A stretch of 64,000 bases of DNA from positions 832,001-896,000 of the forward strand of contig JBBCGK010000001.1 of the NCBI GenBank assembly GCA_037200965.1, given 5' to 3'. The translations under genes and the position numbers were made by a program. The stretch comes from a bacterium. GTDB lineage: Bacteria; Patescibacteriota; Minisyncoccia; Phycocordibacterales; Phycocordibacteraceae. This document shows, piece after piece, positions 3,544 to 60,124 of the stretch (position 1 is its first letter; each line of letters opens with the position of its first letter). The notes beneath the pieces are model-generated. The model saw only the letters and a list, made by a program, of their open reading frames with translations. It made no database searches and had not been told where the DNA came from.

Positions 3544-4314
3544 ATGCTCAAAGGACCGCCGCTCGACAAGATATGTCTCGACTTGAAGGGGGTGGATCGG
3601 TCCGGCTATCCTTTTTCGCTCCCTATTTTGGAGAATACGGAAGAAATATTCTTTCCCTCGCAAGTCACGTTCTTTGTGGGCGAGAACGGTACCGGCAAGT
3701 CCACAATTCTCGAGGCGATAGCTGTCATAGCTGGATTCGGGCCGGAAGGGGGAAGCAGGAATATTCATTTCAGCTCCTCCGAGGAACGTTTCCACGATGA
3801 TGCAAGGAAACTCGCCGCGCGCATGCGGCCTTCCTGGAGGAAAAAGCCCGCAGACGGAAACGGGTACTTCTTTCGGGCGGAGAGTTTCTTCAGCTTGGCC
3901 AATCATATCGACACGATCGCCCGTGAAGGCGGACAGGGGCCGGGGGCAGCATATGCGCCGTACGGAGGAAAGTCGCTCCATGAGCAGTCGCACGGCGAGA
4001 GCTTCCTCTCGTTCTTCATTAACCGGATACGTTCAGGCGGGTTTTTCGTCTTTGACGAACCGGAAGCCGCGTTATCTCCGCAGCGCCAGCTTTCGCTCCT
4101 GACAATCATTCACGATCTCTGCGAGGATCCCGATTCGCAATTCGTCATCGCGACTCACTCACCGATCTTGCTTGCGTATCCAGGCGCCACGATTTATTCG
4201 TGCGACAGCGGATCGCTCAGGCAAGTCGGTTATAAGGAAACGAGCCACTACGAGATCACCAGGGAATTTCTGGATAATCCCGAGCGGTATTTCGCGCAAT
4301 TGTTTAAGAAATAA
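3544..4314 (+). CDS. AAA/ABC-type ATPase (COG3910-like predicted ATPase)
   Basis: Walker A GENGTGKST, Walker B FFVFDEPEAALSP, H-loop ATHSP. A ~250-aa standalone ATPase located 25 nt after the transposase. Confidence 0.65.
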   Translation: MLKGPPLDKICLDLKGVDRSGYPFSLPILENTEEIFFPSQVTFFVGENGTGKSTILEAIAVIAGFGPEGGSRNIHFSSSEERFHDDARKLAARMRPSWRKKPADGNGYFFRAESFFSLANHIDTIAREGGQGPGAAYAPYGGKSLHEQSHGESFLSFFINRIRSGGFFVFDEPEAALSPQRQLSLLTIIHDLCEDPDSQFVIATHSPILLAYPGATIYSCDSGSLRQVGYKETSHYEITREFLDNPERYFAQLFKK

Positions 4315-4378
4315 CGAATTCGACTTTTCGGATACCGCATGGCATCCTGCGCTCGGGAAACAGTCCGGGGAGGACGCC

Positions 4379-4885: not shown

Positions 4886-5410
4886 ATGGAAACCCCGGAA
4901 GCCATTCGCGAATTCGGTATCAAGCGGGAGAACGAAGAACGCCGGGACGGCGGGTGCGGCGTTGTCTTTGACCCCGCGACCCAGCGATACGCTATCGGCA
5001 AGCGGGATATGGACGGGCTGTTTCTTCTGTTTTCCGGCGGCGTTGCGGACGATGAGGATATGGAACAGGGCGTCCTGCGAGAAGTGAGGGAAGAGAGCGG
5101 CCTTCATGATTTTCTGTACGTGGAGAAGATCGCCGAAGCTTTTACGCACTATCACAACAAAGCCAAGAACGTGAACCGGGTTGCCAAGGCCACCTGCTTT
5201 CTCGTTATTCTGAGGAGTTCCGATCTCATACCGACGCAGCTTGAAGCGCATGAGCAGTTCTCGCTCGCGTGGGTTACGACCGAAGATATCCTTTCGAACT
5301 GGCGGGAGCGCAACCAAGACCAGGGTCTCGATCACTGGGTATGGTTCCTCGAAAAGTCAGTCGCACGCGCGATCGAGCTTGGGTACGACACCTCCCGTTC
5401 CGTTGCGTGA
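4886..5410 (+). CDS. NUDIX hydrolase
   Basis: Nudix box GGVADDEDMEQGVLREVREESGL (Gx5Ex7REUxEExGU). Confidence 0.75.
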   Translation: METPEAIREFGIKRENEERRDGGCGVVFDPATQRYAIGKRDMDGLFLLFSGGVADDEDMEQGVLREVREESGLHDFLYVEKIAEAFTHYHNKAKNVNRVAKATCFLVILRSSDLIPTQLEAHEQFSLAWVTTEDILSNWRERNQDQGLDHWVWFLEKSVARAIELGYDTSRSVA

Positions 5411-5527: not shown

Positions 5528-6763
5528 TTGCACGAACCTATGCACACCATTGCAGCAAAACTCGGAGCGATGGCGATTGCGCCGTTCATGCTGTTCTCCG
5601 CACACGCGCAGACGCAGCATGCGCCGCCCAAGACGCCCGCGCCCGAACATCCTAAGCCCGAGCTCTCCTGCACGACGCTCGAGCACAATCTTTCCTTCGG
5701 CTCCAGGGACTCGAACACCGACGGGGAAGTGAGCGAACTGCAGGCGTTCCTTCGGGCCGACGGCTATCTGAAGGCCGCCGTCTCGGGGACGTATGGCGCG
5801 GCGACCGCGCGCGCCGTGGCGAGCTTCCAGCGCGACGAGCATATCGCCGCGACCGGCTCCGCGGGTCCTAAGACGCGCGCCGCGATCGAGTCGGCAAGCT
5901 GCGGCGAAGCGTCCGCGGACCTCTCGATCTCCGGGATCGACGCGCCGACCGCCCTTGCGATAGGCGCGGAAGGTACGTGGATCGTGAACGTCGATCAGAA
6001 GGGCGACGGCAATCTCCGCTACTCGGTCAAATGGGGCGACGAGGGCAAGGCGAGGATGATGGCGCTTTCCGCTTCGGAAGAGACCTCTTCTTCCGCGACA
6101 TTCACCCACGCCTATGACAGCGCGGGTACGTACGCGCCCGAGTTCACCGTGACCGACGAGAGCGGCCATACGGCCACCAAAGTCGCGGCTACGGTGACGG
6201 TCGGAAGCGAAGCGGCGGCAGCGCACATCGCGTCGATCGCTCCGAAGTACGGGTATGCGGGAGCAACCGCGACCCTTACGGGCACCGGCTTCCTCGCGGA
6301 TAGCAAGGTGAGCTTCGGCGGCACCGATGCGGAGAACGTCACGGTCATAAGCGACACGTCCGTGACCTTTACCGTCCCGGCGGTCGACCCCGGCACCTAC
6401 GACGTCGCCCTTACGAACGGGAACGGCACGAGCAACGCGGTTTCCTTCAAAGTAATCGCGAAGCCCGCGGCCAAGCTCTCGATCTCGGGAATCGACGCTC
6501 CGGTGAAGCTCTCGGTTGATCAGGAGGGGACGTGGACGGTCCATGCGGATACGAACACGTCCGGCAGCCTCCACTACAGCGTGACATGGGGCGACGAAGG
6601 GGCCATGCGCTCGATGCTTGCGTCGAAGGGTACGGTTCAGACTTCCTCGACCTTCACCCACAGCTACGCGAAGGCGGGGACGTATGCCCCGAAGTTCACG
6701 GTTTCTGACGACAGCGGCAAGAGCGCGTCCGTAAGCGCGACGGTCGTCGTCCGAGCGAAGTAA
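5528..6763 (+). CDS. Secreted protein with a peptidoglycan-binding domain, PKD-like repeats and an IPT/TIG-like domain
   Basis: Signal peptide. PG_binding_1-like segment (GEVSELQAFLRADGYL...ARAVASFQRDEHI). Two repeats LSISGIDAP...GTW...YSVxWGDEG...TFTHxYxxAGTYAP.FTVxDxSG typical of PKD domains. Confidence 0.6.
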   Translation: MHEPMHTIAAKLGAMAIAPFMLFSAHAQTQHAPPKTPAPEHPKPELSCTTLEHNLSFGSRDSNTDGEVSELQAFLRADGYLKAAVSGTYGAATARAVASFQRDEHIAATGSAGPKTRAAIESASCGEASADLSISGIDAPTALAIGAEGTWIVNVDQKGDGNLRYSVKWGDEGKARMMALSASEETSSSATFTHAYDSAGTYAPEFTVTDESGHTATKVAATVTVGSEAAAAHIASIAPKYGYAGATATLTGTGFLADSKVSFGGTDAENVTVISDTSVTFTVPAVDPGTYDVALTNGNGTSNAVSFKVIAKPAAKLSISGIDAPVKLSVDQEGTWTVHADTNTSGSLHYSVTWGDEGAMRSMLASKGTVQTSSTFTHSYAKAGTYAPKFTVSDDSGKSASVSATVVVRAK

Positions 6764-6782
6764 GTTCTTAGTGTTCTTTAAA

Positions 6783-6823
6783 GCGGAAACCCCGCGCGGC
6801 CCCTGGCCGCGCGGGGTTTCCGC
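6783..6823 (+). terminator. GC-rich hairpin (19-bp stem, 3-nt loop) downstream of the PKD-protein gene; no U-tract
   Basis: gcggaaaccccgcgcggcc-cct-ggccgcgcggggtttccgc is a perfect inverted repeat, 20 nt after the stop. Confidence 0.4.
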
Positions 6824-6855
6824 TGCGCATAAAGGCCATAGAGTAGAATGGCGGG

Positions 6856-17096: not shown

Positions 17097-17819
17097 ATGC
17101 TTCGGGCCATGGCTGCCCGCAAACGTCCCGGTACCATAAGCTTTCTCCTCGCGGTTCTTGCGGCGGGCGTTACGCTCACCGGCGTCTATTTCGCCCTCGC
17201 TCCGGCTATCGTCCCGAACCCGGATCTTCGCGCGACCGTGATACCGACGGGCGTGCTCGCAAGAACCAACAGCGACCGCGCCGCAAACGGCCTTCCGGCG
17301 CTCCGGGGAAACTATCTGCTTGATAAAGCGGCGCAGATGAAGGCCGACGACATGGCGGAGCGCGGCTATTTCGCGCACATAAGCCCCGACGGGCAGAGCC
17401 CGCTCTACTGGCTCGACAAGGTCGGATACCAATACCTGAACGTGGGCGAGAACCTGGGGCGTAACTATCCGGACGCGCGGGCGCTTGAAACCGGCTGGAT
17501 GAATTCTCCGGAGCACCGGGAGAACGTGCTCCGGCCCGAATTCACCGAAGCGGGCGTCGGGACCGCAAGCGGCATGTACAAAGGGGAAATGACGACATTC
17601 GCCGTCGAGATATTCGCGACGCCGCTTCCTTCCGCCAAGGGAAACTCTTCGGGTAGCGGTACTGAAGTTGTTCCCATTCCCGACCTTATTTCGTCCAAGC
17701 CGCTCGCCTCGACAAGCGACGAAGACGCGCTCTACCGTGCGACGCTCGGCGCGCTCATCCTCGATCTCAAGCGCCAGATAGCGGAATTGGTCGCGCGCCT
17801 TGCGCTTAAGCCGGGCTAG
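17097..17819 (+). CDS. CAP (SCP/PR-1-like, YkwD-like) domain secreted protein
   Basis: RAANGLPAL...ADDMAERGYFAH.SPDG...GENL...GWMNSPEHRENVL is the CAP domain signature. N-terminal TM. Confidence 0.7.
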   Translation: MLRAMAARKRPGTISFLLAVLAAGVTLTGVYFALAPAIVPNPDLRATVIPTGVLARTNSDRAANGLPALRGNYLLDKAAQMKADDMAERGYFAHISPDGQSPLYWLDKVGYQYLNVGENLGRNYPDARALETGWMNSPEHRENVLRPEFTEAGVGTASGMYKGEMTTFAVEIFATPLPSAKGNSSGSGTEVVPIPDLISSKPLASTSDEDALYRATLGALILDLKRQIAELVARLALKPG

Positions 17820-17838
17820 GCCTGCTATTATTGCCGGT

Positions 17839-18099
17839 ATGAATCCCGACGTAGCCGAGGAAGGTATCGAGCACTTGGAGCGGATCGAAACGGAACTCGA
17901 GGAAATAAGGAAGCGCACGGGCGGCACGACCCGCGCGTTCGTAAACGGATTGTTTCAGGGCGGCGGGGCGATCATCGGCGGCGTTCTCGCGATACTCCTC
18001 ATCGGCGCTATCCTCGCGTTTCTCGGGCTCATTCCGGGTCTGGGGGATGTCGCCGCATACATCCATTCCGCGGTCGAAGAGCTGCGTTACGCGCGATGA
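17839..18099 (+). CDS. Small membrane protein
   Basis: C-terminal Gly-rich TM helix. Internal ATG chosen as start. Confidence 0.35.
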   Translation: MNPDVAEEGIEHLERIETELEEIRKRTGGTTRAFVNGLFQGGGAIIGGVLAILLIGAILAFLGLIPGLGDVAAYIHSAVEELRYAR

Positions 18100-18371
18100 C
18101 GGCAGGGAAGCGAATCGTTCGCGCTTCGCGCCATCACGTCTATATCCTCGAGTGCGCCGACGGGACGCTCTACACAGGAAGCACGAGCGACCTTGTCCGA
18201 AGGCTTCGGGAGCATAATCACGCCAAATCAGGGGCGCATTATACGAAGATCAGGAGGCCTGTCGTGCTCCGTTATGCCGAATCCGCAAAGACGCTCGGGG
18301 AGGCAAGAAGCCGGGAAGCCGCTCTTAAGCGCCTTACGAGGCAGGAGAAGCTCGCGCTTATCGGGAAATAA
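18096..18371 (+). CDS. GIY-YIG nuclease family protein
   Basis: YVYILECADGTLYTGSTSDLVRRLREHN is the GIY-YIG motif. Confidence 0.75.
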   Translation: MTAGKRIVRASRHHVYILECADGTLYTGSTSDLVRRLREHNHAKSGAHYTKIRRPVVLRYAESAKTLGEARSREAALKRLTRQEKLALIGK

Positions 18372-18383
18372 GTCCGGGTACAT

Positions 18384-19219
18384 TCAAGAAGTAATTGCAC
18401 CACCTCCGAAGAGTGCTAATGGTGTCTTGTACCCGAACCGCTTTCTCGGCCGCTCGTTCAGAGCCAGCTCAATCTCCCGTATCCGTGCCTCCGATACTGT
18501 TGCGAAGTCCGTGCCTTTGGGCAGGTACCATCGTATCAAGCCATTGACGTTCTCATTCGCCCCACGCTCCGATGATGTGTATGGGTGAGCGAAATACACC
18601 TGTACGCTTCTGCCGTCTTGCGGGGTATCTTCTCAATCGCCACGTACCCGCTCTTGCGCTCAAGCAGGGTGACCAAGGCAACCGATGATGCACGCGAGAC
18701 GATGAGGTCGCCCTCCCAGTCGCCAAGACGACTTCGGCGATCCACTGCCTTCGGACGTGCCTCGATCGAGCGTTTGTGTGGGTTCGGGAGACGCTGATGC
18801 TTCCTGAAGCCCTTCCGGTGCCTCGTTTTGTGGCGGCGTTTGAGAAGCGAGCGCAGGTCCTCGCCACCATTCTTCCATTCATCGTATACAAACTGGTATA
18901 TCGTCTCGTGCGACACGCCGCCCACGGTGCCAGCGACTTGTTCGGGCGACCACCCACGCCTCAAGCCAGCGGCAATCTTTTCTCGAAGACCGGCAGTTCG
19001 TATGCGCCCCTGTGTCTCGTGTCGTTTCGACTGTGCTCTCGCCTCCGCAAGCCGGGGCGTATATCGCCGCACTAACGCGGGCATGTTCTTGTTCACCTCG
19101 CGCGACACTGAGGACGGAGACCGTCCAAGGCTCTGGGCGATGGCCCGAATTGACCGCTTCTCCCAGAGTCCTTGCTGTATTTGCTCACGCTCTTCAATAC
19201 CGAAATGCCTGTGTGCCAT
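18384..19219 (-). pseudogene. IS30-family transposase, disrupted by at least two frameshifts
   Basis: N-terminal 227-aa frame (HTH ... DWEGDLI) ends at 18536. A third frame near 18700-18760 reads TLDRGTSEG (DDE second Asp region). The C-terminal frame (18384..18599) reads HPYTSSERGANENVNGLIRWYLPKGTDF...NERPRKRFGYKTP. A degenerate IR TGTTGCGTTT... lies at ~19233. Confidence 0.7.
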
Positions 19220-19282
19220 GCCGCTAGATTAGCGGAAGTGTTGCGTTTACTTGTTGAACTCAGGCGGTGCTAAAATTGCGCA

Positions 19283-20092
19283 ATGCGCAATTTCTGCTTT
19301 ACCGACTCCAGCGGGATATTGAGAAGCGATCGTTTCTTCGGAACCGGTCTTTTGGTGGTAAAGAACGTAGGGGACTTGGGCGACAAGCTCTATAAGAACA
19401 GCCAGCCGGCGAAGGCTCTCGCCAAGGAAGGAAAAAACCGACAGATCGAGCAGCTGCTTGCCGCCGGGAACAAAGACGAGGTCATACGGATGCTGCGGGG
19501 CAATTATCGTTTCGAGATGAAATTCGACAATGTCGGGAACCCTGCCCTGGCCCCGTATTACGACGGCATGGTTGACATCTTCTTTTCCGATTCCGACAAC
19601 CGCTTCTCCGCGATGGTCGTTGACCGCCAGAACCCCCGTTTTGACCACGGCGGCATGGAAGACTCGTGGGAAACCTATACGAAATACATCGCCATGCTGG
19701 TGGTGCGGGAAATGAGTCACATGCCGGACGACGAAATCTGCCTCGTTGTCGACGAGATAACCAAGCCCCGCACGAAGGCCTTGTCTTTGGAGGATGCTAT
19801 TTTGAGCAAAATTAGGGAAGAGACCGCGACCGTCGAGGGCCTCGATTTCGACAAGGTATTCGGTGCGCTTACCATCGAGTCGCATTCGAATCTCCCCATG
19901 CAGCTGTGCGATGTTCTTATGGGAGCCGTCATGTACGAGTACAAGAAGAAAAACGGTTTGAACAGTGTTCGGACAGAGGCGAGGAAAGAGCCGCTCGTGC
20001 GAAAAATACGCGCCGCGCTCGGCGAGCCGACCTTGGCGAAGGAATTCACCGCCAACTCAACGGCATACTTCAACGTTTTCGAGTGCGTATAG
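19283..20092 (+). CDS. DUF3800-like protein
   Basis: N-terminal FTDSSG and C-terminal ESHSNLPMQLCDVLMGAV resemble DUF3800. Confidence 0.45.
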   Translation: MRNFCFTDSSGILRSDRFFGTGLLVVKNVGDLGDKLYKNSQPAKALAKEGKNRQIEQLLAAGNKDEVIRMLRGNYRFEMKFDNVGNPALAPYYDGMVDIFFSDSDNRFSAMVVDRQNPRFDHGGMEDSWETYTKYIAMLVVREMSHMPDDEICLVVDEITKPRTKALSLEDAILSKIREETATVEGLDFDKVFGALTIESHSNLPMQLCDVLMGAVMYEYKKKNGLNSVRTEARKEPLVRKIRAALGEPTLAKEFTANSTAYFNVFECV

Positions 20093-20307
20093 GAAAAAAG
20101 GAAAACGGCCCGCACGAGGCGGACCGCTTCCCTTCATGGGTCATCGACAAGAAACCGACACCCACTACTTTTGCCAGTCTATACCAGGCCGCGTGACGGG
20201 TCAATGAATATGAAGATTATACGGCCTACCTAAGCCATGCACTTTTCCCCTGCATGCATCGGTTTCCGAACGAAAAAGCAAAAAATACGGGTTGCTTGAC
20301 ATGACTG

Positions 20308-20357
20308 CCACATGGGAGTACGCTTGCCGTAATTACGGCAAGCGTACTCCCATGTGG
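20308..20357. repeat. Perfect 50-bp palindrome (25-bp arms, no spacer) between a TTGACA (20296-20301) and a TATAAT (20369-20374)
   Basis: CCACATGGGAGTACGCTTGCCGTAA | TTACGGCAAGCGTACTCCCATGTGG, an exact reverse complement, read directly. Confidence 0.85.
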
Positions 20358-20428
20358 CTTATATGTGTTATAATACATCTCTGCCGCCCGAGTTCCGAGA
20401 TGCCTTGCCGAGTTGGTATACTGACAGC

Positions 20429-21145
20429 ATGCAAGACCAACCACATTTCGGCATCGTTATCGCGATCTGCGCGGGCATCGCCGCGCTCGCCGTCCTCTTT
20501 TACGTCTGGAATGCGGGACAACCGGAAAACCCTCTCATTCCGCCACTTTCCCCTGAAGCTACGTCGACGGACGGCGTAGCTAGTACCACTTCCGAAGTCC
20601 CCGTGTATGCGCCGGAACCCGCCGCCGACCCGGTGCATGCATACGGAAGCGTGACGATCTCGCTCGGGCAGGTCGCCCGTTTCGCCGACCTCTACATCAG
20701 TCCGCTTTCGATCGAAGAGGACAGCCGCTGTCCCAAAGGGGTACAGTGCATTCAGGCGGGAACGGTACGGGTACAGCTTGAGATCGGAAGCGGACTTGGC
20801 AAGAGCACTCAAGTCACAAAGCTTGGGGATTCCGTTACTACCGAAGCCGAAACTATCACGTTCGTTGCGGCGAATCCCGAGCCTGTCGCGGGCATTACGG
20901 TCGCCCCTGCCGACTACCGCTTTACGTTCACGGTCACGAAGCGCCCGCCTGCCGCCGCGGGCGGCCCGTGCTTTGTCGGCGGTTGCTCGTCGCAGATCTG
21001 CAGCGACGAACCGGGCGCGATCTCCACGTGCGAATACCGCGACGCGTACGCCTGCTATAAGACGGCACGCTGCGAGCGGCAGCCGGGAGGCCAGTGCGGA
21101 TGGACGCAGACGCCGGAACTCGCCGCGTGCCTTGCGTCGTCATAG
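20429..21145 (+). CDS. Membrane-anchored secreted protein with a C-terminal Cys-rich domain
   Basis: TM helix after MQDQPHFGIVIAI. The C-terminus has 10 Cys (CFVGGCSSQICSDE...CEYRDAYACYKTARCERQPGGQCGW). Confidence 0.5.
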   Translation: MQDQPHFGIVIAICAGIAALAVLFYVWNAGQPENPLIPPLSPEATSTDGVASTTSEVPVYAPEPAADPVHAYGSVTISLGQVARFADLYISPLSIEEDSRCPKGVQCIQAGTVRVQLEIGSGLGKSTQVTKLGDSVTTEAETITFVAANPEPVAGITVAPADYRFTFTVTKRPPAAAGGPCFVGGCSSQICSDEPGAISTCEYRDAYACYKTARCERQPGGQCGWTQTPELAACLASS

Positions 21146-21164: not shown

Positions 21165-21683
21165 ATGAGCACTAACATTGTATGGGTTGACGAAAATGAT
21201 GCCGTTCTTGGGGAAACCACAAGGGAAAAGGCCCATGCCGAAGGCCTCCTGCACCGTATCGCGGTCACCTATCTTGTAAATGCTGAAGGGGAGATCCTGG
21301 TGAATGAACGGGCTGACGATGGGCGTTTCGACCATTCATCAGCGGGTCATGTCGATGCGGGCGAAAGCTATGTTGAGACGGCCCGCAGAGAGCTGAAAGA
21401 GGAACTCGGAATTGACGGTATTGATATAAAGGAGATCGGCGGTTCCATATCTCAAGATTTGATAAACGATCCGGGTCAGCCGTTCATGAACGCCCGGCAT
21501 ATATTCAAAGTATTTCTCGGAGTCCTGCTCCGGCCGGATTTGATCCGGATTGATCCTGATGAAGTAAAAAGCGTATTTTGGGCTGATCCGAATAAAGTTA
21601 TGGAAGATATGCGTAGTAATCCTTCAAGATATGCCGGAGGCTTTAAGAGCTCCCTGCCCGTATACCTGGATTCTCAAGGATAA
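21165..21683 (+). CDS. NUDIX hydrolase
   Basis: Nudix box GHVDAGESYVETARRELKEELGI. Internal start at 21165 chosen because the upstream ORF extension overlaps the neighbouring gene. Confidence 0.75.
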   Translation: MSTNIVWVDENDAVLGETTREKAHAEGLLHRIAVTYLVNAEGEILVNERADDGRFDHSSAGHVDAGESYVETARRELKEELGIDGIDIKEIGGSISQDLINDPGQPFMNARHIFKVFLGVLLRPDLIRIDPDEVKSVFWADPNKVMEDMRSNPSRYAGGFKSSLPVYLDSQG

Positions 21684-21687
21684 ACAC

Positions 21688-22158
21688 ATGAAAGAAAAGA
21701 AATTCATTCCGAGAAAGGGCCAAACGGACTTTACGAACATCCGCTATACGCCGGTTATCAATTGCGCCGTCCGCTATAAAGGCAGGATACTGCTCGTGAA
21801 GCGGGGTGCCGGAATGCGGTTGTATCCCGGGTATTGGAACGGGGTATCGGGGTTTCTCGATGACAAGAAGGAGCTTAAGGATAAGGTGCGCGAAGAACTC
21901 CGGGAGGAGCTTGGCCTTACGAAGAAGCAGATTGTTTCCATGAAGCTCGGCACGCTCCTGTATCAGGATGCTCCGAAGTATAAGAAGACGTGGCTCGTGC
22001 TCCCGGTATTGGTGGCTATAAATACTGACAAGGTGCGGCTTGACTGGGAGGGGGAAGAATACGGCTGGTTCAAGCCTTCCGGGATCAAGAAGCTCAGGCT
22101 TCTGCCGGGATTTAAGGAAACGCTTGAGAGCGCCCGTAAAGCCAGATACATCGTATAA
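21688..22158 (+). CDS. NUDIX hydrolase
   Basis: Nudix box GVSGFLDDKKELKDKVREELREELGL. Lies 4 nt after the previous NUDIX gene. Confidence 0.75.
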   Translation: MKEKKFIPRKGQTDFTNIRYTPVINCAVRYKGRILLVKRGAGMRLYPGYWNGVSGFLDDKKELKDKVREELREELGLTKKQIVSMKLGTLLYQDAPKYKKTWLVLPVLVAINTDKVRLDWEGEEYGWFKPSGIKKLRLLPGFKETLESARKARYIV

Positions 22159-28993: not shown

Positions 28994-29036
28994 TACGGGA
29001 AAACTTCCCGGGCACGGCGTGCCCGGGAAGTCAGCG

Positions 29037-37064: not shown

Positions 37065-37134
37065 ATCCCCGAAGTTCATAAAACAACACGGCGCCTTTGG
37101 CGCCGTGTTGTTTTCATAGTGGTACACTGCCTCT

Positions 37135-38333: not shown

Positions 38334-38639
38334 GACACAATATTCCGATTCGAGATACTTCTTGAGAAAAAGAACCTGAGTCGGAGACGACCATGCTCCA
38401 ATGTCGTCTTCCCAACTGCCACCTTCGCTTTCGCTGTTATGCAGGGTCAGCGAACGGATGCGTGCTAACTCGGGCCGTTTCTACCTGCGTGGGCAGTCCG
38501 CGCGTTCCGATGTCTTTCGCCAAGCATAGGAGTCTGCCATGGCGACTGGTTTCGCTTCCCACAGACGACCGCCCGGCGACATTTCCACCTGCTCTTAATT
38601 CCAAGGAGATTCGAAATGTCGCTATTTGTTTATAAGACG

Positions 38640-38664
38640 GGCGTCCATCGGATAGATGGACGCC
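38640..38664. terminator. Perfect 10-bp stem/5-nt loop hairpin downstream of the minus-strand gene 38692..39387
   Basis: GGCGTCCATC-GGATA-GATGGACGCC. Only modest U-richness nearby. Confidence 0.3.
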
Positions 38665-38691
38665 CTGATCAGTTTCGATACTCGTCGTAGA

Positions 38692-41090: not shown

Positions 41091-41117
41091 CTTATAAGCG
41101 TTTGCATTCCTTATAAG
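41091..41117. promoter_or_regulatory. Two copies of the palindrome CTTATAAG spaced 19 bp apart, overlapping a TTGCAT-17-TACACT promoter-like element upstream of the island operon
   Basis: cCTTATAAGcgtttgcattcCTTATAAGgagatagtacact, read directly. The ATG of the 77-aa ORF lies ~20 nt downstream. Confidence 0.3.
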
Positions 41118-41136
41118 GAGATAGTACACTTTAAAT

Positions 41137-41370
41137 ATGAACAAGGAAAAGATTAAAGGAGAGTCATCTAGGGATAGATTTAAGCGTTTAGCAACGCTTC
41201 GTACCAACGGAGTACTCAGTCGGCTTAAAATACTTGGAAATTGTTCCAATCGTCATGTCTATGAATACGACGAGGAAGATATAGATAAAATCTTTTTTGA
41301 AATTGAACGCAAACTTAAGGAAGTAAAGGCTAAGTTTCATTTTCCAAAGCAGCGTGATTTTAAATTATAG
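41137..41370 (+). CDS. Small basic hypothetical protein (77 aa) coupled to the downstream large gene
   Basis: AT-rich ORF. Its stop is 5 nt before the 41376 start. No recognisable HTH. Confidence 0.45.
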   Translation: MNKEKIKGESSRDRFKRLATLRTNGVLSRLKILGNCSNRHVYEYDEEDIDKIFFEIERKLKEVKAKFHFPKQRDFKL

Positions 41371-41375
41371 AAACT

Positions 41376-43889
41376 ATGTCGCGGCCTCTAAAAAATAGAG
41401 AAGTCTTTTCGAAACTACTCAGCGCAGTTTCTTCAGAAGAGATAGCGTCTTTAATCGAAAACGAAGTCTTTTTTAAACCAGAAAATTGCAGATGGATTCC
41501 TTATGGAAGACGTGAGCTGAATGCCCCACAGATCGAGGGACAAATGAAAAGCTCAAGTAATGCGTTGGTAGAAAAAATCACCAATTCAACAGATGCTCTC
41601 CTAATGAGGCGATGCTATGAAGTCGAAGGGGTGGCACCTAATAGCGAAGACAAACGATTACCCAAGACTCTTTCTGAAGCAATTACAAAATATTTTGGAA
41701 GCGAAGAAGAAATAAATAAAAATCGAAGCGCATGGGCAAGACAGCATCTCATGGTTTTGGCTGAGGGTGATAAAAAGAGGCCAACAATTACTGTTATTGA
41801 TCGAGGCGAAGGACAAACTCCCAATAGAATTCAGGATACAATCGTTGGCTTGAGCGAGAGCATAAAGGAGAAAATAAATTTTGTTTTTGGTAAATACCAT
41901 CAAGGAGGGTCAGCCGCTATACGTTTTGCAGGTAGCAAAGCTAAGTGCTACCAGCTTGTCCTGTCCCGGCGCGCGGAGAGTATTGCCGATAAAGGTAAAG
42001 AAAATCCGTGGGGATTTACGTTGGTAAGGAAAAGTTTTAAAAACAGAGTTCCTTATTACGAATACTGCACAGACAAGGATGAAAACACCTTTTCTTTCCC
42101 GTACGATAAACCAATAAAAATTGATGGTCTGGAACTGGACTTTATCGATGGGTCACTTATCCGTATGTACGATTACTACTTGGATAATCCATCAAATATC
42201 ACTTTCGGGTTTCATTCACTGGCCTTCGATTTTGATCAAAAGTTACAGAAACCGCCACTCCCTATCTTTCTGCAAGATAAGAGAGGATGGAAAGGAGACA
42301 CTAAATATACAATTGCAGGCTTACTAAGGCGAATTGAGGATAATAAAAATATTATCAGCGATGATATTACCCTTCCTGCAGGTTTAGGAGAGATCGGAAC
42401 TCGCAATATCCGCTGCATTCGCTTGAAGCATATAAGCGATGCGGAAGGAGTAAAATCCTATAAAGAATTAAATCAGAAAATATTCTACCTGGAAAACGGT
42501 TTGGCTTTGGGATATGAGACCGAATCTTTTGTGCGAACAGATTGTCAGCTTCCCGCTCTGGCCCCCTATCTCCTCTGTTATATCGATATGTCTGATATTC
42601 CAGTTGAGTTGGTAAATATCTTTCACTCTGGAAGAGAAGAATTGGCTCGAACCGAGGATTATCACATCTTAAAAGATCGCCTAAAAAAGTTCTTTGAGAA
42701 TGAAGTCTTTGAGAAGTGGGATAGAGAATACCAAGAAAAAAGCTTGATCAATTCCAATGAGGATAATAAGGAACTCGATAAGCTCATTGAGAAGGCCATC
42801 GTCGATGATCCGGAACTCAAGGAGTTACTGGGTATTGGTGAAGAAATCAAGATCCCGAAGGGGAAAGAGGAGAATAAGGAGAAGTACATTGGCGAGGAAC
42901 ATCCAAAAATGTTTGAGCTTGTAGGGAGTCAACCAAAAGAGGTTGATAAATCTTCTTACGCCCTTATATCTTTTAAGACCGAGGCAGAAGATAAACTCTT
43001 TACTAGAAAAAAGAGCCGCTATTATATTGATTGGTCCAAAGATTCAACCATCCTTGATGTGGTGGTTCGTAGTATGAATAAAGGTATTGTGTCTTTGCGC
43101 GTGGATTGCAGGGAACATGCCAGCGTTGGCGATCAGGATAAGATTACTTTCACTCTGCTGGATTCTGAAAAAGTAAAAAAGTTTGAACAAATCGTTACAT
43201 TTAACGTAATTGAAACACCGCCTTATGAAGGTTCATATTTCCCAACGTACTTTAAGCCATTGAAGAAAACGCTGAAGATTCCATCGAAAACAAACAAAAA
43301 GTTTAGTTTTGCTACAGACGTTGCAAATGATTATTTCTCCAGAGAGGATGATCCTGGATTGTTTGAATTTGAAGATCGTGATGATCTGCGTTTAAAAAAG
43401 TCCCGTTTAAATGATGGCGTTCTCGAAATTACCTTTTATGCCGCTACTGAAAAGTTGGGGAAACTACCGGATGCTAAAGTAGTAATTAGCGATACTTCAA
43501 ATCATACGTTTGATATCTCTATACCCATCGAGATCGTCTCTCCCGAGGAGAGTTCCAGGCTTAACGAACCAAAGAGAAATCCTGTATATGAAAGAGACTG
43601 GCCCACTCACGGCTGGGATGAACATAGTATTGCCAGTGTTGATTCGTCCAGGACACAAGGCTTAATAGTAAATTTGAACGTAGATTCTAAGCCCTTGAAG
43701 GATTTAAAGAAAATGGTTGGCCTTGATAAAGTCGGAAGCGCAGAGAATAAATATATTGCCGATATTTACATTTATTCCCTCTATCTTTATTTTGAACTAA
43801 AAAATGATCCTGACAAGGATCGGGTTCTAGGTTCTGCAATGAAGGCTATTGGGAAGGCCCTTCCCGGAATGATAAGAAAAATCATTTAA
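41376..43889 (+). CDS. Large (837 aa) protein with an N-terminal GHKL (MutL/MORC/HATPase_c-like) ATPase domain; C-terminal ~600 aa unassigned
   Basis: Bergerat-fold motifs: N-box LVEKITNSTDAL (E..NS.DA), G1 box ITVIDRGEGQTP (DxGxG), G2-like FGKYHQGGSAAI. The gene is AT-rich and convergent with a DNA MTase. Confidence 0.6.
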   Translation: MSRPLKNREVFSKLLSAVSSEEIASLIENEVFFKPENCRWIPYGRRELNAPQIEGQMKSSSNALVEKITNSTDALLMRRCYEVEGVAPNSEDKRLPKTLSEAITKYFGSEEEINKNRSAWARQHLMVLAEGDKKRPTITVIDRGEGQTPNRIQDTIVGLSESIKEKINFVFGKYHQGGSAAIRFAGSKAKCYQLVLSRRAESIADKGKENPWGFTLVRKSFKNRVPYYEYCTDKDENTFSFPYDKPIKIDGLELDFIDGSLIRMYDYYLDNPSNITFGFHSLAFDFDQKLQKPPLPIFLQDKRGWKGDTKYTIAGLLRRIEDNKNIISDDITLPAGLGEIGTRNIRCIRLKHISDAEGVKSYKELNQKIFYLENGLALGYETESFVRTDCQLPALAPYLLCYIDMSDIPVELVNIFHSGREELARTEDYHILKDRLKKFFENEVFEKWDREYQEKSLINSNEDNKELDKLIEKAIVDDPELKELLGIGEEIKIPKGKEENKEKYIGEEHPKMFELVGSQPKEVDKSSYALISFKTEAEDKLFTRKKSRYYIDWSKDSTILDVVVRSMNKGIVSLRVDCREHASVGDQDKITFTLLDSEKVKKFEQIVTFNVIETPPYEGSYFPTYFKPLKKTLKIPSKTNKKFSFATDVANDYFSREDDPGLFEFEDRDDLRLKKSRLNDGVLEITFYAATEKLGKLPDAKVVISDTSNHTFDISIPIEIVSPEESSRLNEPKRNPVYERDWPTHGWDEHSIASVDSSRTQGLIVNLNVDSKPLKDLKKMVGLDKVGSAENKYIADIYIYSLYLYFELKNDPDKDRVLGSAMKAIGKALPGMIRKII

Positions 43890-45202
43890 TTCTTCTCCAT
43901 TACGACTATATATTCAAATTCATACGCACGAGTTTTTGAAGGATTGTCCATTCCAGTAAACTTTCCGCTTTCAGTATCACGCCACGGAGTTATCATTTTA
44001 TTTGGTATTTCCCGCTTAATAAAGTCTACGTTCGTAAAACCAGCGGCCTGCATCTGTTCTGCCGCCACCTGTGCGTTCTGAATTTCTACACCCCGAAGAC
44101 TTGTGTTTCCAATAATTACGCAAGCCTTCCCGCCCTTCTTAAGAATTCGATGAGCCTCGGCGAAGACTTTTTTCATATCTAGGAAGTAATTAGCAACGTC
44201 GATAGCAAGCGGGCGTTCAACTAGCATGAGATCGTCGACAATTTTCGCCCCTATGATGCTATTAAAATTGCCGGCCTTTTTGGTCTTTGAACTCGTACCA
44301 ATAAAAGTTCTGCGAAAATCTATGAAACTATTACTGAAGTGATGCCATTTCTTGAAGTGTTTAGCATCGTCCCCGAACCACAGCAACGTAAGCTGATGAA
44401 GATCAGCATACTCATAGGAAGTCACATAAGGCGGAGAAGTCACTATCAAGTCGATAGATTCGGATTTAATTGGGAATGTTTTGGTCGAATCTCGACGATA
44501 CATTTTTGTCGGGATGCTGATGCGTTTTGCTTCAGCTAGGTTGTTGTAAAATAAATCATTCTTTCTAATCATTGAATCCAGATGTCGAAGAAAGGACTGT
44601 TTAGGGACCGGTATGATCTTGTCTTTGTCAACTGTCGGCTTGATACTTTTCATTAACCATCGAGAGCAGTTTTTCAGGTTATGTGAGAAAGCGCACAAGA
44701 AAAATCTACGAACGTGCGGACTCTTAATTTTCTTTATTGCAAAGTAAATTCTATCGAGCTCAATAACGGTTTCCGCATCGAACCAATAAGTAATTCGAGC
44801 ATGATGTGGGCGAGAGACGCTCGGAGCTGCATCATAGTATTCCAAGAATCTCTCTTTATGATTTGCAAGTGTACGCGGCTTAATCGCGGTGGTCTTTGTT
44901 TGAGTGATTAACTTCGCAACTGGATTTATATCAAAGCCGATACTCGGATGTCCTAGTAACTTTGCTTCCACCAAAGTCGTGCCACACCCACCGAATGGAT
45001 CACAAACGACTTGTGTAGTATGCGGCGCGTAATCTTCAATCAATTTACGAACAATTTGCGGAATAAACTTTGCCGGGTAACGATGATAGTCGTGGGAAAA
45101 GGCAGTAGTTTGTGAGCGACCAATATCTCGAAAAGACCACTCTTCACGCGGTTGCAGGCTTAAAAAAGTATTTCGGATGTTTTCGATATCAACAGTGGCC
45201 AT
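43886..45202 (-). CDS. N6-adenine/N4-cytosine DNA methyltransferase
   Basis: Motif X/I YPAKFIPQIVRKLIEDYAPHTTQVVCDPFGGCGTT and motif IV LIVTSPPY. AT-rich. Start taken at MATVDIEN; the longer ORF runs to 45277. Confidence 0.8.
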   Translation of the reverse strand: MATVDIENIRNTFLSLQPREEWSFRDIGRSQTTAFSHDYHRYPAKFIPQIVRKLIEDYAPHTTQVVCDPFGGCGTTLVEAKLLGHPSIGFDINPVAKLITQTKTTAIKPRTLANHKERFLEYYDAAPSVSRPHHARITYWFDAETVIELDRIYFAIKKIKSPHVRRFFLCAFSHNLKNCSRWLMKSIKPTVDKDKIIPVPKQSFLRHLDSMIRKNDLFYNNLAEAKRISIPTKMYRRDSTKTFPIKSESIDLIVTSPPYVTSYEYADLHQLTLLWFGDDAKHFKKWHHFSNSFIDFRRTFIGTSSKTKKAGNFNSIIGAKIVDDLMLVERPLAIDVANYFLDMKKVFAEAHRILKKGGKACVIIGNTSLRGVEIQNAQVAAEQMQAAGFTNVDFIKREIPNKMITPWRDTESGKFTGMDNPSKTRAYEFEYIVVMEKN

Positions 45203-45352
45203 ACTAAGAGGTAGTATAAGGGCAGGCCGGAGACGATTCAAGCACATGTCGTGTGTTCTTTGGCCCGGAGGAGCCACAGCAGATTCCGAAGTACATACAA
45301 GCGGTATCTTCGGTTTATTCGATAATTATCACCACGCGCGTATAATGGCTGC

Positions 45353-56889: not shown

Positions 56890-57465
56890 ATGGACGCACA
56901 CCCGCTTACCGATGAAGAAGCCGCCCGCCGGTCGCTTGAGGATAAGGAGCAGTTCGCGCTCCTTATCAGGCGCTACGAGGCCCCCTTGGGACGCTACCTG
57001 GAGCGCCTTGGCGTTCGCGTACGCGAAGACCGGGAAGACCTCCTGCAGAACGCGTTTCTCAAGGCATACCGGAATCTCAACAGTTTCGACCCGACGCTCG
57101 CATTCTCTTCCTGGATGTACCGCATCGCGCATAACGAGGCTATGAGCTTCTTTAGGGCCAAGAAAGCGCGTCCGCAGGTGGTGCTGGGGGAGGAAGGGCA
57201 GCTTCTGTTGACCGAGCTCCGGGATGAACGCGCCGATACGGGGGCGCTCGCGGAAGAGCGCCTCACCGCAGGCGAGCTCGCGCAGGCGCTTGAGAAGATA
57301 GACCCGAAATACCGCGACGTACTCACGCTCCGCTTCTTCGAGGAGCGTTCGTATGCGGATATTTCCGACATCCTGGAGCTTCCGGTCGGCACGGTCGCGA
57401 CCCTGATCCACCGGGCGAAGAAAGCGCTTCGCGCAGCCGTTTCCGACCGCCTTATAGCGCCATGA
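56890..57465 (+). CDS. ECF-type RNA polymerase sigma-70 family factor
   Basis: Region 2 (LLQNAFLKAYRNL...WMYRIAHNE) and region 4 (LTLRFFEERSYADISDILELPVGTVATLIHRAKKAL). Confidence 0.8.
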   Translation: MDAHPLTDEEAARRSLEDKEQFALLIRRYEAPLGRYLERLGVRVREDREDLLQNAFLKAYRNLNSFDPTLAFSSWMYRIAHNEAMSFFRAKKARPQVVLGEEGQLLLTELRDERADTGALAEERLTAGELAQALEKIDPKYRDVLTLRFFEERSYADISDILELPVGTVATLIHRAKKALRAAVSDRLIAP

Positions 57466-58376
57466 ACCACGACTCTATGCGAGAGCAATCCGAAGACCGC
57501 GATCCCGTATCGCGCCGCGTGCTTGAGCACATCGAACGCGAACAGGTCCGGCCGCTCCCGCGCTCCCGCTTCGTGCTGCAGAACGTCGCCCTCTGGGTAT
57601 TCGGCATCCTTTCCATACTTTTCGGCGCCATCGCAGCCGCCGCCGCGCTCTTCGCGCTTGCGAACGCCGGCTGGCGCTATTACGTCGCGACGCACGACAC
57701 GTTCCTGACGTTTCTCATAGAAACCGCGCCGCTCCTTTGGATCGTGACGCTCGCGTTCTTCGTGCTTATCGGCTATCAGATATTCCGCCGCACCCGCCGC
57801 GGGTACCGCTATCCGTTTATCGCCGTCGCCGCGACATCGGTCGCGGCGAGCCTTTTGCTTGGCGCCGCGCTTTACGGCGCGGGATTCGGGGAAGTCATCG
57901 AGGAAGGACTCGGCGCGCACGTGCCGTTCTATCGGCCTGCGCTTCAGGCGGAGCAGGTGATCTGGGCGCATCCGGAGCGGGGCCTTCTCGCCGGAAGGGT
58001 AACGGGCCTCGCGCCCGACTTTTCGAGCTTCACGCTCCTTGGTTTCGACGGGAAGCTTTGGAATGTCGAGGGGAGCGATCTGCGGCGCTTTGACGAGGCG
58101 ACGCTTGCGCATGGCGGCCTCGTACGGATTGTCGGCGTGCCGCTCGCAAGCACGACGGAAGATGCTGCATTCCACGCATGTTTTGTTTTCCCGTGGGAGA
58201 TATATGGCTCCTTTGCGGAGCGCCGCGCGCCGATGCCGTTCCCGTATGCCGGAGGTGAAAGAAAGATTGCCGCGGAACGTAGTGAAGAGTGTAAGGGCGT
58301 ACGACCTTACGCGCCTCTGCGGGCGCTCGAAGAACAAGGGCACGCGAGCAGCACCGAGTTCACGAACGGCTCATAG
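57462..58376 (+). CDS. Putative anti-sigma factor (membrane protein) cotranscribed with the ECF sigma
   Basis: ATGA overlap with the sigma gene. Cytoplasmic N-terminus, 3-4 TM helices, extracytoplasmic C-terminus. Confidence 0.5.
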   Translation: MNHDSMREQSEDRDPVSRRVLEHIEREQVRPLPRSRFVLQNVALWVFGILSILFGAIAAAAALFALANAGWRYYVATHDTFLTFLIETAPLLWIVTLAFFVLIGYQIFRRTRRGYRYPFIAVAATSVAASLLLGAALYGAGFGEVIEEGLGAHVPFYRPALQAEQVIWAHPERGLLAGRVTGLAPDFSSFTLLGFDGKLWNVEGSDLRRFDEATLAHGGLVRIVGVPLASTTEDAAFHACFVFPWEIYGSFAERRAPMPFPYAGGERKIAAERSEECKGVRPYAPLRALEEQGHASSTEFTNGS

Positions 58377-58515
58377 CGCCGGTCCCGGTAAGCGGGCGCT
58401 AGCGCGGTCGGTACGCGCCCGCAGGGTTTGGGAACTATTCGAAAGAGCCATGCGCGGCGTACGCCGCGCATGGCATTTATCGTTCACCCTGCCTTCACCG
58501 CGTATGCGCTAGGGT

Positions 58516-59136
58516 GTGCCCATGTTTCTCCGCATCCTCGCTCTCCCGTTTTTTGCCGTTGCCGTGGTCGCGGCTTCCTACACCGGCTGGCAGCACCCCG
58601 GCACCGTTTCAAACGTGCGGGCGAACGAAGGGGTCGTTCCCCCGGCCTCTATCGCTCCGGCTCCTTCGGGCGCAGCCTACTTCACGTACACAAACCGCCC
58701 GTTCGGTTTCTCCCTCACATATCCGCGCACTTTTATCCGCGATACGAGCGCGGGGCTTGGCTGGAGCTACGGCGCTGAGCGCGGAAGCGGCGCGACCGTG
58801 CTCACACTCTATCTTCCGCCGCAGACGGCGCTCGTGCGCGCGGGAGGGGAAGGAGTCCTTCGCGTGGGCGTCGCAAATGACGCGGCAAGCATGGAAACGT
58901 GCCTCTCGCCCGAGCGGCCGGGTACATACCAGGGAACCGTGACGCTCGGGAGCGAAACATTCACGCGCTACGACTATCCGGAAACCGGCATCGAAAGCTA
59001 TCGCACGTTCCATGCCGGAGCCTGCTACGCCGTTGAAATAGGGGTGCGCCTTGAAGAAGGGGCGGGAACAGGCCCTACAGCGGAAGAGGCACGAACGATG
59101 CTTCGGGATGCGGCTTCGACATTCAGCTTTTCTTGA
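58516..59136 (+). CDS. Secreted hypothetical protein
   Basis: Signal peptide (MPMFLRILALPFFAVAVVAAS). Confidence 0.45.
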   Translation: MPMFLRILALPFFAVAVVAASYTGWQHPGTVSNVRANEGVVPPASIAPAPSGAAYFTYTNRPFGFSLTYPRTFIRDTSAGLGWSYGAERGSGATVLTLYLPPQTALVRAGGEGVLRVGVANDAASMETCLSPERPGTYQGTVTLGSETFTRYDYPETGIESYRTFHAGACYAVEIGVRLEEGAGTGPTAEEARTMLRDAASTFSFS

Positions 59137-59613: not shown

Positions 59614-59648
59614 CGCACGGATTTGTAAGGGCTGGTTGCCCCCTTGTG

Positions 59649-59679
59649 AAAAACCGCCGCGTTTTGCGCGGCGGTTTTT
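59649..59679. terminator. Rho-independent terminator, bidirectional-looking
   Basis: aaaaaCCGCCGCG-tttt-gCGCGGCGGttttt lies 36 nt after the 59613 stop. Confidence 0.6.
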
Positions 59680-60124
59680 CATGTATGAAACAATACCGAC
59701 CGCCAAAGTATTGTGCGGTCGGCGCGGAGAATTAGTGCGGTATCGAGCCTGCTACTGACGCGATTTGACCTGCGGCGGTAAAGGCAAGCTGCGCACTGTG
59801 GAGGAAGACGATTACGGTCTTCGAAAGTTCTGAAAAGATCCCGGGGACAAGGACCTCAAGGACGATGATCGTCATCCCCAATCCGATGGCTTGCAACATG
59901 GCGAGCAGCATGTCGGGGAAGACGGTTAGGTGAGATGCGTGCGACCACACATCTGACGATAATCTCGTCCTGTCCTCCCCCGAGCGCGCGCCAAGCCTTG
60001 GCCCGTCCTCGGGAGGGGTGTCCTGTCCTTCTGCCCTCTATAACCTGATCCTCTCGGAGGAGGTTTCAATACGGCAAGCATTTTGGTGATACAATTCCCC
60101 CATATTAAATAACACCAGCACCAT

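Follow-up and report, generated by a model that had tools for sequence, protein, structure and literature searches.

A perfect 52-bp palindrome in a patescibacterial genome, a possible terminator or insulator hairpin beside a conserved small RNA convergent with DUF3800-like genes

The window analysed here, a stretch of 64,000 nucleotides (positions 832,001–896,000 of contig JBBCGK010000001.1, assembly GCA_037200965.1) from a bacterium of the Patescibacteriota, carries a perfect 52-bp palindrome in the spacer between a DUF3800-like gene and a gene for a cysteine-rich (Cys-rich) protein. The palindrome and the DUF3800-like gene belong to a 2.6-kb interval that also holds genes for a small membrane protein and a GIY-YIG protein and the relic of an IS30-family transposase; coordinates below are those of the window, with loci from other genomes given by L numbers. 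The palindrome is real, and it is an orphan. Whilst striking in look, it is probably ordinary in function: our preferred reading, which we put forward tentatively, is that of a plus-strand intrinsic-type terminator or insulator hairpin at the edge of an acquired module. Between the DUF3800-like gene and the palindrome we also find a small RNA (sRNA) gene, previously undescribed and strongly conserved, which the original prediction made from the letters of this window had omitted.

The palindrome spans 20307–20358, and an inverted-repeat search divides it into two arms of 26 nt each (20307–20332 and 20333–20358) that are 100% complementary, with a 0-nt spacer and the centre CGTAA/TTACG. The original prediction had described an exact palindrome with zero spacer, and this stands; the extent that it gave (20308–20357, 25-bp arms) falls one pair short, as G20307 pairs with C20358. 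Read on the plus strand, positions 20296–20374 run TTGACA TGACT GCCACATGGGAGTACGCTTGCCGTAA/TTACGGCAAGCGTACTCCCATGTGGC TTATATGTGT TATAAT. For the RNA form, a stem of 24 bp capped by a loop of 4 nt is predicted, with a folding energy of about -51 kcal/mol; that of the DNA form is -34 kcal/mol (z = -12), and for the 161 nt around the palindrome the folding z is -7.5. Directly 3' of the stem lies a T-rich tail on the plus strand (TTATATGTGTTATAAT, 20359–20374), a candidate U-tract for plus-strand termination: its first 10 nt, TTATATGTGT, hold 6 T in 10, in an interrupted run that passes the scan rule of 5 T in 8. The tail on the minus strand is not T-rich, and in the consensus scan the palindrome is terminator-like on the plus strand only.

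Within the window the palindrome stands alone. It is the longest perfect inverted repeat of the 64 kb, the runner-up (6782–6824) having a stem of 20 bp, and its arm finds only its own two places at up to 3 mismatches; with a chance expectation of about 0 and no match in 100 shuffles, the view that it lies far beyond chance is borne out. Beyond the window, we see no further copy of the arm in the JGI metagenomes or in IMG/VR, nor in the GTDB representative genomes save for two unrelated, chance matches to a single arm (a metagenome-assembled genome, MAG, from the Clostridia, and Halogranum), and the spacer that contains it (20093–20428) has no blastn match in plasmids or phages. A search for other copies, proposed earlier as a check for a repeat family or a miniature inverted-repeat transposable element (MITE), thus yields none across the 64 kb of the window and these collections. 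The palindrome's matches in Rfam are sub-threshold look-alikes of microRNA precursors, reflecting a generic hairpin shape, and were rejected. The two open reading frames (ORFs) that overlap it (20292–20579, plus strand; 20226–20444, minus strand) have no Pfam match; that they are artefacts, as had been proposed, is the simplest reading.

An assembly artefact had been named as the finding that would undo the case, and chimeric reads can indeed create palindromes; moreover, GCA_015655515.1, a MAG from 2020 for the same strain, has a contig break 116 nt beyond the palindrome on its right-hand side. The Logan contigs of run SRR28211700, assembled independently at k = 31, speak to this directly. 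They match the window at 100% identity for 4,962 and 11,219 nt, making 16 kb of flanking sequence; one of them ends at 20336 and the other starts at 20329, with both junction k-mers present. By calculation, a de Bruijn graph of k = 31 branches at 20336/20329 if, and only if, a reverse-complement palindrome spans 20307–20358, and the breaks at these predicted positions therefore rule out an artefact specific to one assembler. Saying this, SRR28211700 is possibly the read set behind the window's own MAG, and a graph of k = 31 alone cannot prove a path from left flank through palindrome to right flank as against two fold-back ends; the latter are disfavoured by the co-directional genes and the unchanged GC skew across the palindrome. 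The short arms and unique flanks are likewise unlike the fold-backs left by missed adapters. All told, we regard an origin in assembly or library preparation, with the palindrome absent from the organism's DNA, as highly improbable.

Turning to the neighbourhood, the DUF3800-like gene (19283–20092, plus strand, 269 amino acids) has homologues of 47–72% identity in many Patescibacteria. Its label finds indirect support only: the protein encoded in the window scores 16 bits against a Pfam cut-off of 21, so that it falls below the threshold itself, whereas a homologue of 61% identity passes with 29.5 bits. The homologues, reaching 72% identity, are nearer than any relative of the adjacent Cys-rich protein, and they occur in unrelated gene contexts, which suggests that the DUF3800-like gene is horizontally mobile. 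The IS30-family relic (18384–19219, minus strand) retains an HTH_38 N-terminus and a C-terminal tail, in different frames; it is frameshifted and internally deleted, the middle of its DDE domain being missing, and we detect no terminal inverted repeats. It abuts the stop codon of the GIY-YIG gene (91 amino acids). In one relative (L009) a CAP-domain gene directly abuts the Cys-rich gene, and in others a tRNA gene precedes it; the 2.6-kb interval of the window would thus be largely inserted material, judging from these comparisons, with the palindrome at its outer edge. The neighbours of the palindrome encode a methyltransferase, CAP, GIY-YIG, the IS30 relic, NUDIX and MBL-fold proteins, and none among them is a DNA-binding regulator, save for the helix-turn-helix domain of the dead IS30 transposase. 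A search of IMG/VR for more lineages with the DUF3800-like gene found no relatives.

The sRNA gene (20091–20169, minus strand, about 78 nt) is convergent with the DUF3800-like gene, and RNAalifold gives it the form of a two-hairpin RNA: a P1 hairpin (20165–20136) with covarying pairs and the conserved, invariant loop GUUUCUUGU, followed by a Rho-independent terminator hairpin (20135–20098), likewise covarying, and then a U-run, the T-run being found on the minus strand only. In front of it, a promoter scan places a sigma-70-like promoter on the same strand at 20204–20176 (TTGACC, 17 nt, TAGACT). All seven lineages of DUF3800-like genes examined share this arrangement, in that the stop codon is followed by a hairpin with a minus-strand T-run and then by the near-invariant CTTCATGGGTCATnGACAAGAAACCnACACCCACTA (20132–20168 in the window), whose two n positions covary as C:G, A:T or G:C; across the alignment, seven pairs are maintained through changes on both sides. 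The sRNA loci of the other lineages are L088:4810–4915, L089:2585–2700 and L097:4817–4925, together with those in L101, L102 and L106. Visual inspection of L088, L089 and L097 shows a comparable promoter in the corresponding position, so that with the window it is identified in four of the seven lineages, these being all that were checked for one. Against Rfam 15, whose accompanying paper has DUF3800-I and -IX among its families, the sRNA finds no family at E up to 10, and its motif is absent from IMG/VR. We also observe DnaA-box-like nonamers (TTATCCACA / TGTGGATAA) just outside the sRNA promoter, perfect in L088 (4910–4925) and L106 (3905–3920) and off by a single mismatch in L089 and L097; the window shows no obvious counterpart.

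DUF3800 genes have been found in association with 11 unrelated structured RNA motifs, which may lie on either strand and often end in a terminator (Weinberg et al. 2017, PMC5737381), and the sRNA resembles these motifs (DUF3800-I to XI) in being structured and conserved, in sitting beside a DUF3800 gene and in having a Rho-independent terminator at its 3' end. We consider it a candidate for a new DUF3800-associated RNA motif. The palindrome differs from such motifs: it is not conserved with the gene (palindromes occur in two of the seven lineages, with unrelated sequences and at a different offset) and it has no match in Rfam 15. Conservation in the alignment is lost beyond the sRNA promoter, so that the right edge of the DUF3800/sRNA module falls at about 20205; the palindrome is therefore separated from the conserved part by some 100 nt and sits in DNA peculiar to its lineage.

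On its other side lies the Cys-rich gene (WDN10_05005; 20429–21145, plus strand), encoding a protein of 238 amino acids that has a transmembrane segment at its N-terminus and carries at its C-terminus a domain with eight cysteines (PF27854, Heavy_Cys_CGP). Members of this family abound and are widely spread in the Paceibacteria, and the nearest non-identical relative of the window protein is 54% identical. Starts at 20426 or 20354 were considered and rejected, their products not being on record, and the true start is the ATG at 20429. Six nt before this ATG lies the extended -10 element TGGTATACT (20415–20423, plus strand), the probable promoter of a leaderless mRNA. TGnTATACT or TGGTATAAT stands exactly 6 nt before the ATG in several orthologues (L014, L020, L021 and L038), with close variants in L031/L032, and this conserved spacing implies that the eight-cysteine family is expressed from leaderless mRNAs. 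Separately, a hairpin, GGCCGGGA...TCCCGGCC, recurs directly after the Cys-rich gene in orthologues. In the window, two consecutive NUDIX hydrolase genes follow (21165–21683 and 21631–22158), overlapping by 53 nt.

This promoter assignment alters the picture of a palindrome wedged between the two elements of a promoter. The hexamers are where they had been reported, TTGACA at 20296–20301 and TATAAT at 20369–20374, 67 bp apart, and at that spacing they cannot make one promoter: TTGACA lacks a -10 partner at 16–18 nt and receives no promoter call, and the promoter scan returns no plus-strand promoter from the pair. TATAAT forms part of an extended -10-like element, TGTTATAAT (20366–20374, plus strand), within the T-rich tail. 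As TGGTATACT is the promoter conserved among orthologues, TATAAT at 20369–20374 is therefore not the conserved promoter; nor does the palindrome take up a -35/spacer position, since TGGTATACT begins 57 nt after it and it falls at about -64 to -115 of that promoter, between what would be two transcription units. We fetched 80 loci of Cys-rich orthologues and scanned 41 upstream regions, 300 nt each, for perfect hairpins of at least 8 bp; 32 have none, and those in the other nine are unrelated, terminator-like stems of upstream genes that in no case resemble the palindrome. An operator was one of the roles suggested earlier; with no palindrome conserved upstream of the orthologues, a conserved operator is not supported.

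To set the palindrome in context, we surveyed perfect hairpins in the window and about 85 other non-redundant loci of Patescibacteria, 434 kb in all. The survey holds 14 distinct perfect hairpins with stems of at least 16 bp, their centres mostly of 0–3 nt; when these and three 14–15-bp hairpins of the window were checked against ORFs, 10 of the 17 were found 4–33 nt past a stop codon, several of them without a T-tract. One of those without a T-tract is the hairpin at 6782–6824 of the window, which has a 20-bp stem and lies 18 nt past the stop of the gene at 5528–6763 and 31 nt before the next co-directional gene. Further hairpins after stop codons (14–22 bp stems, as a class) occur in the window at 29003–29031, 37080–37114, 38639–38665 and 59647–59681, and elsewhere at L021:1353–1391, L037:1110–1148, L074:2789–2824, L078:3969–4013 and L033:3117–3152. 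Given this placement, long perfect hairpins are a normal 3'-end device in these genomes, and the palindrome of the window is the extreme of their distribution. Two other arrangements were seen in passing. Locus L029 carries three perfect hairpins of 19–21 bp within about 1 kb (4215–4258, 4299–4340 and 5230–5273), two of them adjacent and between divergent genes. In the window itself, a 28-bp perfect palindrome (GCCATGCGCGGCGTACGCCGCGCATGGC, 58447–58474) lies between the divergent genes 56994–58343 (minus strand) and 58516–59136 (plus strand), and is a better operator candidate than the 52-bp palindrome.

The palindrome of the window and one in L088 are the two longest in the 434 kb. L088 has an AT-rich genome and a DUF3800-like protein of 71% identity; its perfect palindrome (4926–4975, 50 nt) has 24-bp arms and a 2-nt centre, AC, and starts 10 nt beyond the -35 of the sRNA promoter. 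In both of these strong cases the next gene is co-directional. Local alignment of the two palindromes gives a similarity no better than that of shuffles (p = 0.33). In a third lineage, L097, the corresponding interval holds a weaker, moderate hairpin with a T-tail. Once the ascertained case is left out, the comparable spacers, about 1.3 kb together, contain one such palindrome, where the background in intergenic DNA is about four per 60 kb, for an estimated p of about 0.08; the occurrence of a palindrome at the same module edge in a second lineage (one of the six others) is therefore suggestive, and not significant.

How might a terminator or insulator at this position work? The transcription unit to be stopped would be that of the DUF3800-like gene, whose layout with the sRNA resembles that of 3'-overlapping antisense pairs. 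The hairpin at 20098–20135 should be of no use to it and serve the convergent, minus-strand sRNA only, because its U-run is on the other strand; with no plus-strand stop there, a polymerase coming from the DUF3800-like gene would continue into the region antisense to the sRNA gene and across it. Beyond the module, no strong plus-strand structure would stand in its way before the palindrome, where it may be halted by the 24-bp stem followed by UUAUAUGUGUU. Such a halt would protect the Cys-rich gene, served by a leaderless promoter of its own some 57 nt beyond, from read-through. As to the perfect symmetry, centre included, it would more probably have arisen at the level of the DNA, either through recent origin or through 'quasipalindrome correction'—homogenisation by template switching—and not through base-by-base selection. 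Transcription across the palindrome, termination there and the route to perfection are, all three, steps that we infer.

Intrinsic terminators, counting among them the U-tract-poor 'I-shaped' and the long bidirectional kinds, share with the palindrome a stable, G+C-containing stem-loop, here set between putative transcription units and followed by a T-rich stretch on the plus strand, and perfect 3'-end hairpins with 16–22 bp stems are common in these genomes. A terminator was also among the roles listed in the original prediction and is the one that we favour, albeit short of conviction, for a number of observations weigh against it. Intrinsic terminators usually have stems of about 5–15 bp and loops of 3–8 nt, and the palindrome, with arms of 26 bp and zero spacer, or as RNA a stem of 24–26 bp and a loop of 0–4 nt, lies outside that range. 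It differs further in its self-complementary centre and interrupted U-tract; an RNA hairpin needs neither such a centre nor 26 Watson-Crick pairs out of 26. It is 214 nt past the stop codon of the DUF3800-like gene, compared with at most 33 nt for most comparable hairpins, a distance explained by the convergent sRNA gene that lies between. Terminator-like matches in the region are at the level of shuffles (four found, 3.6 expected), the L088 palindrome has no T-rich tail on either strand, and in five of the seven DUF3800/sRNA lineages the perfect hairpins at this place, if any, do not exceed 9 bp.

Of the other readings, the one that asks least of the palindrome is that it has no function of its own and is a neutral, recent product of mutation, by inverted duplication or template switch in a non-essential, horizontally acquired spacer. 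At 52 bp it would be too short for instability and hence tolerated; it is perfect through its centre, without decay; the DNA around it is specific to the lineage and has no alignable counterpart in others, and the interval is in some relatives much shorter or gene-to-gene (L009); no homologue of the arm was found in any database searched; and the four datasets of this strain are identical, giving no sign of age. We nevertheless think it unlikely, as the strong bias of long perfect hairpins to the 3' ends of genes argues for use, a similar palindrome stands at this edge of the module in another DUF3800/sRNA lineage, and both the T-rich tail and the place between two transcription units fit a function. 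A dyad bound by a regulatory protein, dimeric or tetrameric, whether as its operator or as an upstream site, is a good deal more doubtful. The dyad symmetry is exact, including the centre; relative to a start directed by the candidate promoter TGTTATAAT, the palindrome would take in about -24 to -75; and if the sRNA promoter were the target instead, the L088 palindrome abuts the -35 of just such a promoter. Yet 52 bp is far above the usual length of an operator, no regulator gene is adjacent, the Cys-rich orthologues have no conserved upstream dyad and use the leaderless TGnTATACT promoter, the window's palindrome and that of L088 are unrelated in sequence, and no palindrome at all is present in five of the seven lineages. 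We give similarly little credence to the palindrome as a functional accessory of the module formed by DUF3800, with its RNase H-like fold, and the antisense sRNA, in which it would act as a hairpin substrate (DNA or RNA), a decoy or a boundary element. The module could be an RNA-guided or toxin-antitoxin-like system, with the long hairpins of retron msd regions for comparison. Two of the seven lineages have perfect palindromes of at least 24 bp just outside the sRNA promoter, DUF3800 genes go with 11 unrelated structured RNA motifs (PMC5737381), and DUF3800 is known as a partner of type VII retrons (PMC7736814) and from a protein that accompanies Cas12a2 and has an RNase H-like fold (PMC10910872). 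Set against this are the p of about 0.08 once the ascertained case is removed, and a palindrome that is conserved neither in position nor in sequence and that most of the lineages lack. The palindrome also differs from a retron msd hairpin in having no reverse transcriptase gene in its neighbourhood and no match to an Rfam retron.

Mobile elements and recombination offer two further explanations; a recombination site had been raised earlier with reference to the nearness of the DUF3800 gene and an IS30 relic. Classical IS30 has inverted repeats (IRs) of 26 bp, the very length of the arm, and the relic is 1.1 kb away, so that the palindrome might be a scar: a pair of terminal inverted repeats without an interior (a minimal MITE), an abutted IS30 IR-IR junction or an insertion hot-spot, with the outermost GC...GC readable as a 2-bp duplication. 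Repeat search and local alignment, however, find the arm to be unlike either end of the relic or anything else in 17800–20300 (p = 0.3 to 0.99); there is no unambiguous target-site duplication, the flanks (...ATGACT / TTATAT...) sharing no direct repeat of at least 2 nt; the palindrome is single-copy in the 64 kb and without copies in the databases searched, the two chance single-arm matches apart; and an IR-IR junction would have IS bodies on either side, which the palindrome does not. The link to the relic is accordingly not supported, and a scar of this kind is very unlikely. Least probable, along with the assembly artefact, is a target for site-specific recombination or telomere resolution, or an assembly join of two hairpin-ended replicon termini. 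Protelomerase targets (telRL) are perfect palindromes of roughly 50 bp; the palindrome matches those of N15/phiKO2-type phages in size (within 40–60 bp), perfection and unique flanks, and a graph of k = 31 cannot separate the continuous path from two fold-back ends. It is unlike them in its chromosomal, housekeeping context, in that the genes on either side are co-directional and the GC skew keeps its sign at 20.3 kb, in that no recombinase or resolvase is found among the annotated neighbours within about 10 kb save for the dead IS30, and in that the window's assembler resolved the unique flanks inside a 960-kb contig. Neither a break in skew or orientation nor a recombinase thus marks the palindrome as the recombination site once suggested.

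Elsewhere in the window, the stretch 41100–45300 forms a low-GC island (39–48%, as against about 57% elsewhere) with a gene for an 837-amino-acid protein without Pfam match and, convergent with it, one for an N6/N4 DNA methylase; the island probably represents a restriction-modification system gained by horizontal transfer.

The interest of the palindrome lies chiefly in what it warns of and what it points to. A spectacular perfect palindrome flanked by consensus hexamers is, in this case, not a promoter-operator unit; and such a palindrome breaks short-read assemblies at exactly predictable positions. For the biology of these bacteria, the survey indicates that these reduced genomes employ, at the ends of genes, perfect hairpins that are very long and almost loopless, and the sRNA convergent with DUF3800-like genes in Patescibacteria, a more interesting by-product than the palindrome itself, adds to the unexplained RNAs associated with DUF3800. 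Were the palindrome to work within the DUF3800/sRNA module after all, this would explain why the two longest palindromes of 434 kb both lie just outside sRNA promoters, and it would open a way into a protein-RNA system that has gone without a known function since 2017.

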